Part shown: in pieces, positions 32,648 to 33,153 of the stretch
Position numbering within the stretch: position 1 is the stretch's first letter
How the letters are laid out: the number at the start of each line of letters is the position of its first letter
Source: Larkinella insperata
GTDB taxonomy: Bacteria; Bacteroidota; Bacteroidia; Cytophagales; Spirosomataceae
Reading direction: 5' to 3'
Length of the DNA stretch: 64,000 nt
Assembly: GCF_026248825.1 (NCBI RefSeq)
Contig: NZ_CP110973.1
Coordinates: 2,111,668 to 2,175,667, forward strand
Notes under the pieces: generated by a model
The model's input: only the letters and a program-made list of their open reading frames with translations
Told to the model about the DNA's origin: nothing
Databases searched by the model: none
Translations under genes and position numbers: made by a program

Positions 32648-32865
32648 CGCCCCGGCAGCCGCTCCGACTACCAAAACGCGATCATCCGGCCTATTTTCGC
32701 AAGCAACGTACGCCCGGCCGCCCCGACACGACCCTGCTGGCCCCGTCTGAACCGTTGCGTCTGGTTTAAAACCGTTCCGACGCAACCGGATAGCTCCGGC
32801 GGATTATGAACATCTGGTAACCTTTTTAGAAGTGGCCGCTTCTCCAACCAACGGATCAGCCTTTT

Positions 32866-32957
32866 GGGCTGATAGCAGGATTCGAACCCGCGTTTGTCTG
32901 CTGCTCTACCCTTGAGCTATCCTGCCGAAACAGGAGAAGGATTCGAACCTTCAACCA
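32866..32957 (-). other. Two tRNA/tmRNA-like T-arm plus acceptor-3' fragments on the minus strand; no complete cloverleaf
   Basis: The minus strand reads ...ACGCGGGTTCGAATCCTGCTATCAGCCC (plus 32866-32892) and ...GAAGGTTCGAATCCTTCTCC (plus 32932-32957). Each has a perfect GGTTCGAATCC T-loop with a 5-bp T-stem. The first resembles a tmRNA/tRNA 3' end. No matching D-arm, anticodon arm, 5' acceptor strand or tmRNA tag-reading frame could be found upstream. A third degenerate copy lies at 33015-33045. Confidence 0.3.
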
Positions 32958-33153
32958 GCAGGTTAGGGACAGAATTTTCCACCATCAACAGCATATCGCC
33001 TTAGCCAGAGGCCGCGATACTACGGGGCTATGCCGAAACCCGCGTCTGGTTTGATACCTGGGCCGTTCTATCGTTACAAAGCTTGGAGCCTCCTGCGCAG
33101 TGTTTTTGCGCAGTTCAGATTTTTTCTCCATTTTTCTAAAAAATTATTCTCCA

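Follow-up and report, generated by a model that had tools for sequence, protein, structure and literature searches.

The 64,000-nt stretch of Larkinella insperata DNA analyzed here (contig NZ_CP110973.1, positions 2,111,668 to 2,175,667; referred to below as the window) carries on its minus strand an operon for a slipin, a protein of the SPFH/Band-7 type, and the RNA ligase RtcB. The 595-bp gap between this slipin-rtcB operon and a divergent gene for a WYL regulator is occupied by a structured RNA that contains two tRNA-like modules. Its identity as a conserved, slipin-linked RNA that mimics tRNA is close to certain. The locus is arranged as follows:

29846..31408, minus strand: RtcB RNA ligase, 520 aa (Pfam PF01139, E = 3.7e-80; also matched by NCBIfam), with an N-terminal extension of ~145 aa
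31443..32558, minus strand: slipin (SPFH/Band-7), 371 aa (Pfam PF01145; stomatin and HflK homologs in the PDB)
32598..33070, minus strand: whole structured RNA, ~470 nt, both ends approximate (conservation and covariation along the interval)
33154..34206, plus strand: divergent regulator with WYL and WCX domains, 350 aa from the ATG at 33154 (Pfam PF13280 and PF25583)

The slipin, which is 100% identical to a Larkinella insperata database protein, lacks a hydrophobic segment at its N terminus; cage-forming stomatins are among its homologs. The WYL regulator found no match in a PDB sequence search. The neighboring genes are those for Omp85, RtcB, slipin, the WYL regulator and EF-G, and an integrase is not among them. 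A gene for a TROVE/Rsr protein does not lie adjacent, nor was one present among 10 further open reading frames (ORFs; 377–634 aa) scanned across the window.

The motif GGTTCGAATCC occurs twice in the 64-kb window, at 32878-32888 and 32939-32949, both times on the minus strand and against a chance expectation of 0.09. Each copy forms a 5-bp stem with a seven-base UUCGAAU loop, as in the T-arm of a tRNA. In an initial annotation of this DNA, the two had been described as perfect T-loops with 5-bp stems, 62 nt apart. Both are present, with starts measured 61 nt apart; pairing is perfect in T-arm 1 (GAAGG/CCUUC) and includes one G.U pair in T-arm 2 (GCGGG/CCUGC). The same annotation had found no D-arm and had taken the copies for tandem repeats of a tRNA 3' half. 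A canonical D-arm does lie between the two T-arms (UA-GCUC-AAGGGUA-GAGC-A, 32919-32902), and the actual order of the elements is T-arm, acceptor-like hairpin, D-arm, T-arm, acceptor-like hairpin. A further motif, GCCGAAAC, had been counted three times; it occurs twice in the region and 11 times across the whole window. Often encoded beside RtcB, the bacterial Y RNA YrlA mimics tRNA and binds Ro60/Rsr. Its tRNA-like domain has a circularly permuted arrangement (Chen et al., 2014, PMC4201824), to which the window RNA corresponds, since each T-arm is followed by an "acceptor" hairpin of its own. The two T-loops thus belong to the T-arms of a tandem pair of circularly permuted tRNA-like modules, whose parts are listed here (R1 denotes a covariance model of the family, described below):

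32898..32961, minus strand: tRNA-like module 1, of YrlA type; closing stem CUGC/GCAG (4 bp), variable-loop-like UGGUU, T-arm 1, AS1 and D-arm 1
32936..32952, minus strand: T-arm 1, GAAGG-UUCGAAU-CCUUC (Rfam YrlA and R1 matches, covariation)
32920..32935, minus strand: AS1, acceptor-like hairpin UCCUGU-UUCG-GCAGGA, 6 bp with a UUCG loop (compensatory changes at 6/6 pairs)
32903..32917, minus strand: D-arm 1, GCUC-AAGGGUA-GAGC, with equivalents of A14, A15, G18, G19 and A21, and U8-A9 before it
32875..32891, minus strand: T-arm 2, GCGGG-UUCGAAU-CCUGC (Rfam tRNA and R1 matches, covariation)
32855..32873, minus strand: AS2, acceptor-like hairpin AUCAGCC-CAAAA-GGCUGAU, 7 bp (read from the sequence; the homologous helix 6 covaries)
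32844..32854, minus strand: CCGUUGGUUGG, a remnant of D-arm 2 that keeps the GG of the D-loop (the R1 alignment matches UGGU)

The sequences that flank the closing stem of module 1 (CCCUAAC and ACAAACG) are non-complementary. Module 2 of the window has neither the D-stem nor the anticodon-like arm found in most other lineages, which leaves the window RNA without an anticodon-like arm in either module.

The conservation of this element was assessed in a sample of 80 genomic loci encoding relatives of the window slipin, cited here by L numbers. In about 57 of the 80, two GGTTCGAnTC motifs lie 57–72 nt apart, ~330–720 nt upstream of slipin and on the same strand, and ARAGORN calls no tRNA from such double-T-loop elements in the window and the 60 related loci scanned. 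The covariance model R1 (129 positions) comprises module 1, T-arm 2 and AS2 and was built from 54 loci; its training excluded the window and the three closest two-module relatives (L001, L005 and L006). R1 has a single match in the window, at 32843-32965, which covers positions 1–129 of 129 and scores 90.4 bits (E = 2.9e-17; family range 87–123 bits). Matches of at least 60 bits upstream of slipin and on its strand occur in 68 of the 80 genomes; among the related loci, 59 reach at least 87 bits and 8 more score 60–69 bits. Real tandem tRNAs in nearby arrays score 30–52 bits.

The association was also approached from the RNA, by scanning metagenome contigs for the double-T-loop pattern and then scoring them with R1. 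Wherever a match of at least 82 bits was accompanied by enough downstream sequence, slipin followed 237–958 nt downstream on the same strand (26/26). R1 did not match most of the other pattern matches at E up to 1e-7, and roughly a dozen had scores of 49–63 bits; these remaining matches are presumed to be unrelated sequence or tandem tRNAs. Of the 80 genomic loci, 55 have RtcB downstream and 24 have a WYL gene upstream, in the same position as that of the window. Together with the 26 metagenome cases, these counts indicate that the primary coupling of the RNA is to slipin. The family occurs upstream of this slipin subfamily in Cytophagales, Chitinophagales and Sphingobacteriales. Two metagenome contigs of 67% G+C (L132:928-1068 and L177:2029-2160) contain double modules scoring ~70 bits with R1 and no slipin nearby; their neighboring ORFs have no Pfam match, and this may be another setting in which such an RNA occurs.

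Selection on the fold is evident from the pattern of substitutions. In a MAFFT alignment that was not fitted to the structure, 96.9% of the cells in the helices of the R1 region hold standard pairs, as opposed to 41–51% with slid partners. Compensatory changes occur at 24 of 28 pairs, and none of 500 shuffles reaches the observed values. All four helices of the YrlA domain (T-arm, acceptor-like stem-loop, D-arm and closing stem) covary. RNAalifold, applied to 47 sequences, yields a structure of 55 pairs, with compensatory changes at 45, and this prediction includes D-arm 2, the anticodon-like arm and two hairpins of the 5' domain, H1 and H2. The tertiary pair 15:48 of tRNA covaries as well. 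In module 1 it is G:C in 43 cases, A:U in 5, A:C in 5, G:U in 0 and U:A in 1, with A15:U48 in the window (Fisher p = 9e-5, uncorrected for phylogeny); in module 2 it is A:U in 25 cases, G:C in 23 and others in 6. Covariation of this pair in both modules argues that each folds into a tRNA-like core, and the frequent G.U pairs are consistent with transcription of the slipin strand. The canonical acceptor pairing, between the 3' strand of AS1 and the 5' strand of AS2, is present in 56.5% of cells versus a shuffle mean of 53.5%. As local hairpins, AS1 and AS2 are paired in 91–92% of cells, with compensatory changes.

Among models of known RNAs, those of tRNA and YrlA match the element below their gathering scores. 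ARAGORN, which also covers transfer-messenger RNA (tmRNA), finds 0 tRNA or tmRNA genes in the 64-kb window, and no Rfam 15 family matches the window at its gathering score. The T-arm-like elements therefore lie outside any normal tRNA or tmRNA gene, as the initial annotation had held. In an Rfam scan of 32400-33300 there was no tmRNA-family match at E up to 10, and none at that threshold to H-type pseudoknot riboswitches (e.g., preQ1-I) or to ligand-type riboswitch families. Across the window and 13 related loci, no Rfam 15 family covers the RNA. The best score of the Rfam tRNA model (RF00005) is 25.8 bits (gathering score 29) and combines D-arm 1 with T-arm 2, the anticodon arm being deleted; the same reading exceeds the gathering score in some relatives (30–43 bits).

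The YrlA model (RF02553) matches with 43.4 bits (E = 3.5e-8) over positions 23–88 of 114, compared with a gathering score of 69, and the matched stretch consists of T-arm 1, AS1 and D-arm 1. In L034, the model matches both modules, and the same locus holds a 12-bit cyano_tmRNA fragment, the sole match to a tmRNA family. The window RNA shares with YrlA the permuted order of T-arm, acceptor-like stem-loop and D-arm, the short closing stem, T- and D-loops of tRNA type and the 15:48 pair, and it is likewise encoded in an RtcB RNA-repair locus. It differs in lacking the long stem that joins the 5' end of YrlA to its 3' end and carries the Ro60/Rsr-binding site (model positions 1–22 and 89–114 are unmatched), in scoring below the gathering threshold and in having no rsr (TROVE) gene adjacent or among the window ORFs scanned. 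Moreover, its ~470 nt hold two tandem modules, a pseudoknot and additional domains on the 5' and 3' sides.

The complete RNA consists of a 5' domain, the two tRNA-like modules, the pseudoknot and a 3' domain of ~220 nt. Outside the modules, the following features are distinguished:

33113-33107 and 33100-33094, read on the minus strand: two CTGCGCA boxes, 13 nt apart (GCAAAAACACTGCGCAG conserved in 8/8 aligned Spirosomataceae loci)
33077..33084, minus strand: promoter-like AAGCTTTG (AAnnTTTG aligned in 8/8 close relatives; conservation starts here, and the CTGCGCA boxes lie just upstream)
33022..33045, minus strand: H1, bulged hairpin ACG[C]GGGUU...AGCCCCGU (RNAalifold, 47 sequences; pairs 43-45/64-66 and 47-51/59-63, with many compensatory changes)
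32993..33020, minus strand: H2, hairpin GUAUCGC...GCGAUAU (pairs 68-74/91-97 covary; RNAalifold, 47 sequences)
32819..32843, minus strand: H-type pseudoknot; stem 1 AGAAG/CUUCU, loop CGGCCA, A5 linker, GGUU pairing with GGCC of the loop
32786..32805, minus strand: 5' strands of the long-range helices P1 and P2, AAUCC...CGGAGCUAUCCGG, which close the 3' domain
32754..32785, minus strand: P3, hairpin UUGCGUC...GACGCAA in the 3' domain (RNAalifold, 6 Spirosomataceae sequences; some compensatory changes)
32606..32646, minus strand: perfect 18-bp hairpin with 5' arm GGAGCCAUCC, species-specific
32598..32617, minus strand: 3' strands of P2 and P1, UCGGAUGGCUCCG AA CGGGU (permutation test and Spirosomataceae alignment)

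The Bacteroidota −7 promoter element has the consensus TAnnTTTG, and the resemblance of AAGCTTTG to it would place the 5' end of the RNA near 33070. The divergent WYL regulator may use the two CTGCGCA boxes as its operator. H1 (33045-33022) is the element that had been read as a third, degenerate copy of the T-arm; it is a separate hairpin, conserved and covarying in 47 related loci. The stretch UAUGCUGUUG (32995-32986), whose start is overlapped by the 3' arm of H2, is nearly invariant. The motif GTCTGGTTT does occur twice, as had been noted, its reverse complement AAACCAGACGC lying at 33052-33042 and 32767-32757. Both copies fall inside the RNA, the first in the 5' domain before H1 (33042-33052) and the second in the loop and 3' arm of P3 (32757-32767); the first is conserved in the family, and the second appears to be lineage-specific.

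For the pseudoknot, loop and tail form a mean helix of 4.92 bp within the same locus versus 3.60 bp when permuted among loci; none of 2000 permutations attains the former value, and the helix sequence takes 35 distinct forms. For the 3' domain, a structure derived with MAFFT and RNAalifold from 44 Chitinophagaceae sequences was poor, and a permutation test of the closing helix and the small Spirosomataceae alignment took its place. The closing helix has a family mean of 11.4 bp as against 9.3 bp when permuted (maximum 9.85 in 200 permutations). In the window it comprises 13 bp, with its 3' strand at 32617-32605 ending 46 nt before the slipin ATG, and the 3' closing helix of the RNA as a whole terminates ~40 nt upstream of that ATG (32558). 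The distance is 27–45 nt in many relatives and 100–300 nt in some loci. The 5' arm of the 18-bp hairpin, GGAGCCAUCC, nearly duplicates the 5' strand of P2, GGAGCUAUCC (32797-32788), which implies that the two compete for the same 3' strand. L001-L005 do not have this hairpin and carry ~41 other nt in its place; the stretch in the sister species includes a UUCCGC hairpin. A minimum-free-energy fold of the whole intergenic region (z-score −3.9) did not reproduce the tRNA-like arms and was set aside. A scan for sigma-70 promoters and terminators gave nothing meaningful, its sole "terminator" being T-arm 1, and it found no terminator-like site between the RNA and slipin.

The modules themselves vary by lineage. 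Four Spirosomataceae, namely L. knui, L. rosea and two more (L002, L003, L004 and L007), lack exactly the 73 nt of module 1. Most Chitinophagales and other Cytophagales have a module 2 with a full D-arm plus an anticodon-like arm, in which a 5-bp stem carries a loop of 7 nt. This loop most often reads YU-NNN-RA. The triplet is hypervariable (39 loci hold 19 different ones), while the stems are conserved. Their sequences are CUACA/UGUAG or AAGCA/UGCUU (for example L034:4655-4712). In Larkinella and Spirosoma, the window included, D-arm 2 and the anticodon-like part are reduced to CCGUUGGUUGG.

The nearest published counterpart is the Band-7-associated tRNA-like RNA (b7a-tRNA). According to a preprint (bioRxiv 10.1101/312249), Burroughs and Aravind predicted in 2016 that a Band-7 protein and a cognate tRNA-like RNA, encoded next to RtcB, form an analogue of Ro60/Y RNA; the preprint also states that YrlA is occasionally adjacent to Band-7 proteins, describes the RNA, as of 2018, as experimentally unvalidated and characterizes it as "strongly resembling an authentic tRNA." As far as this description goes, the genomic association is the same as in the window, with a tRNA-like RNA beside a Band-7/SPFH gene and RtcB. 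Set against that second-hand description, the T-arms and D-arm of the window RNA are tRNA-like, yet the RNA is permuted and not called as a tRNA, and it differs further from the RNA so described in being doubled and embedded in a far larger fold. It is classified here as a doubled, permuted version, ~0.5 kb in length, of this predicted Band-7-associated tRNA-like RNA, under a WYL regulator. Three loci without the large RNA (L037, L055 and L065) have a single T-loop motif ~50 nt upstream of slipin (L037 and L055 scanned), at which ARAGORN calls tRNA-Tyr(GTA) in L055 and nothing in L037. In L023 and L054, a tRNA-Tyr lies between the WYL gene and the RNA (L023:4259-4344 and L054:4121-4205). A tRNA-Tyr next to slipin may be the b7a-tRNA in the strict sense.

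Regulated RtcB operons offer a second comparison. In Salmonella, rsr-yrlBA-rtcBA is under RtcR/CARF control (Hughes et al., 2020, PMC7790460), and in Anabaena the TrcR regulon, comprising slipin, rtcB, an AAA ATPase and a tRNA operon, is co-induced under translational stress (PMC10272220). As in these systems, the RtcB operon of the window has a dedicated regulator, and RtcR and TrcR operons respond to RNA or translation damage. The window regulator is of the WYL and WCX type, however, and not a CARF/sigma-54 activator or a ribbon-helix-helix repressor, and neither of these papers (PMC7790460; PMC10272220) describes an RNA of this kind upstream of slipin. The parts of the TrcR regulon are found physically linked around the large RNA in Chitinophagaceae. 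There, arrays of 7–15 tRNA genes lie on the slipin strand ~1–4 kb upstream of slipin, in the order tRNAs, AAA ATPase (sometimes a PF04308 RNaseH-like protein), large RNA, slipin and RtcB. The loci with such arrays are:

L009, L014, L018, L019, L024, L025, L031-L034, L036, L038, L040, L042, L044, L048
L050, L052, L053, L056, L059, L062

The junction of tandem tRNAs also has the order T-arm, acceptor 3' strand, spacer, acceptor 5' strand and D-arm. This order and the 30–52 bits that R1 gives to the arrays suggest a possible evolutionary origin of the element. In the window RNA, by contrast, the acceptor strands pair locally, module 1 is without an anticodon arm and the element is not detected as tRNA.

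Taken together, these data are explained best, by a modest preference, if the slipin-linked tRNA-mimic RNA acts as a partner of the slipin-RtcB module. A WYL-controlled promoter would drive the RNA as the 5' part of the slipin-rtcB transcript, and the folded tRNA-like elbows would then serve as the RNA partner of slipin-RtcB, bound by the slipin scaffold, by RtcB or by both. Such a role would parallel, by analogy, that of Y RNA with Ro60 (Rsr) next to RtcB in other bacteria. Its tasks could include tethering the ligase and damaged tRNA substrates, or occupying tRNA-recognizing proteins. The mechanism in question, that of a cofactor or scaffold, is put forward tentatively and falls somewhat short of being probable. 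Several points weigh against a partner role. The ends of the RNA are approximate predictions, and its release from the mRNA and its binding by slipin or RtcB are putative. Since module 1 is dispensable and module 2 of the window is reduced, the number and completeness of the tRNA mimics do not appear to be critical. Finally, the RNA extends to within ~40 nt of the start codon with no terminator between, so that a leader acting in cis fits at least as well as a cofactor acting in trans.

In such a cis-regulatory leader, the RNA would sense a tRNA-recognizing factor (RtcB, slipin, RNase P or a modification enzyme) or its own cutting and repair, and refolding of the 3' domain by the start codon would change slipin-rtcB translation or mRNA stability. 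The position of the RNA directly upstream of slipin and on its strand accords with this, as do the closing helix 27–45 nt from the ATG in many relatives, the missing terminator and, in the window, the choice of one 3' strand between the perfect 18-bp hairpin and long-range P2. That hairpin, however, is species-specific and absent in L001-L005, the distance to the ATG rises to 100–300 nt in some loci, and no ligand-type riboswitch family matches. In addition, extra YrlA-like modules occur elsewhere in the islands. L025 contains two such arrangements of T-arm, acceptor hairpin and D-arm (L025:8286-8410 and 8720-8842; R1 43.5 and 39.1 bits) in a 1.4-kb non-coding gap directly upstream of RtcB, apart from its slipin-upstream RNA. 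On balance, a cis-acting leader is rather unlikely to be the whole explanation.

A more speculative proposal, which we regard as doubtful, is that the ~0.5-kb RNA represents an undescribed class of multi-domain bacterial RNA in which tandem tRNA mimics, equipped in most lineages with a rapidly evolving anticodon-like loop, are sacrificial sensors or baits for tRNA-targeting nucleases, and in which their cleavage, or their resealing by RtcB on the slipin cage, turns the operon on or off. If true, this would amount to an RNA-based alarm wired directly to the repair enzyme.

RtcB-type RNA ligases reseal cleaved tRNA, and RtcB is the neighbor gene here. The modules might accordingly be decoys or baits that absorb, or are cleaved by, anticodon nucleases or other tRNA-directed effectors, so that tRNAs are protected or an attack is reported, with RtcB carrying out the repair. 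Most relatives have in module 2 an anticodon-like arm with a hypervariable triplet on conserved stems, and tRNA arrays are present in related islands. For YrlA, Hughes et al. (2020, PMC7790460) proposed that it could inhibit an anticodon nuclease competitively. The window RNA, however, is conserved in Larkinella and Spirosoma although it has no anticodon-like arm and therefore cannot bait an anticodon nuclease, and its acceptor-like stems are closed by loops, which leaves no free 3' end for acceptor-targeting effectors. We consider a decoy function improbable. The cis-leader and decoy readings are each compatible with the partner role, and neither excludes it.

Two remaining explanations have almost no probability left. 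A tRNA or tmRNA gene of unusual form, whether permuted, split or without an anticodon arm, that escapes standard finders would account for the sub-threshold tRNA score in the window and the 30–43 bits in some relatives, but a tRNA without an anticodon arm is rejected because the acceptor pairing it needs, of the AS1 3' strand with the AS2 5' strand, does not covary; there is also no anticodon arm or free acceptor end, ARAGORN finds nothing in its tRNA or tmRNA mode and the only tmRNA-family match is the 12-bit fragment in L034. Decayed, duplicated tRNA or tmRNA 3' halves left behind by an integrase, the main reading of the initial annotation, would fit the tRNA-type T-loop sequence, and the weak R1 matches to tandem tRNAs make an ancient tandem-tRNA origin plausible, but such a relic is ruled out for practical purposes by covariation and synteny: compensatory changes keep the structure across several Bacteroidota orders, 68 of 80 genomes and 26/26 metagenome matches show synteny with slipin, the window has no integrase among the neighbors and no tRNA gene that could be the parent, and the two elements are alike only in the 11-nt loop motif. 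No complete, high-scoring tRNA or tmRNA spans the region, and the element is neither a normal gene of this kind nor a relic; the alternative suggestion in the same annotation, a regulatory decoy RNA, pointed in the right direction.

RtcB is universal, yet its bacterial substrates and partners are poorly defined, and the same holds for the roles of Y-like tRNA mimics and of operon-encoded SPFH/slipin proteins. The locus offers a slipin-linked RNA with strong covariation and clear modules (two elbows, a pseudoknot and 5' and 3' domains), along with natural deletion variants: sister species lack module 1, and only some lineages have the anticodon-like arm. It also makes the 2016 prediction of a Band-7-associated tRNA-like RNA directly testable. 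The slipin leader of E. coli is a simpler relative of the window RNA and is genetically tractable. It belongs to a yjbD-lysC island with slipin and a nucleotidyltransferase that is present in 1632 of 5426 complete E. coli genomes (~30%). This island comprises a sigma-54-type promoter (TGGCAC-N5-TCGCA), the leader (T-arm, acceptor-like hairpin and UGG), slipin, the nucleotidyltransferase and a convergent zeta-toxin gene. Two examples of the leader are:

L081:3660-4000, E. coli CP061233.1: slipin leader
L082, E. coli NZ_CP019267.1, 929413-929753: slipin leader

One RefSeq record that was inspected carries no RNA feature annotation at the leader. As the family is also absent from Rfam 15, a family model would fill a gap in annotation.

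Several minor features of the surrounding loci were also recorded. Chitinophagaceae encode a conserved protein of ~500–520 aa between slipin and RtcB (L019:6264-7826 and L025:6333-7844), which has no sequence match in Pfam, NCBIfam or the PDB; the window has no counterpart, and its RtcB carries the ~145-aa N-terminal extension instead. Between the RNA 3' end and the slipin ATG, L032, L033, L048, L049 and L050 contain 2–3 tandem AATCTGTG(T/C)-like repeats that are absent from the window. On the other side of the window locus, an EF-G (fusA-type) gene at 34465-36567 adjoins the repair locus, and SecY is encoded ~10 kb further, at 46663-47976. EF-G and Omp85 are conserved neighbors only in L001 and L002, the two closest Larkinella genomes.

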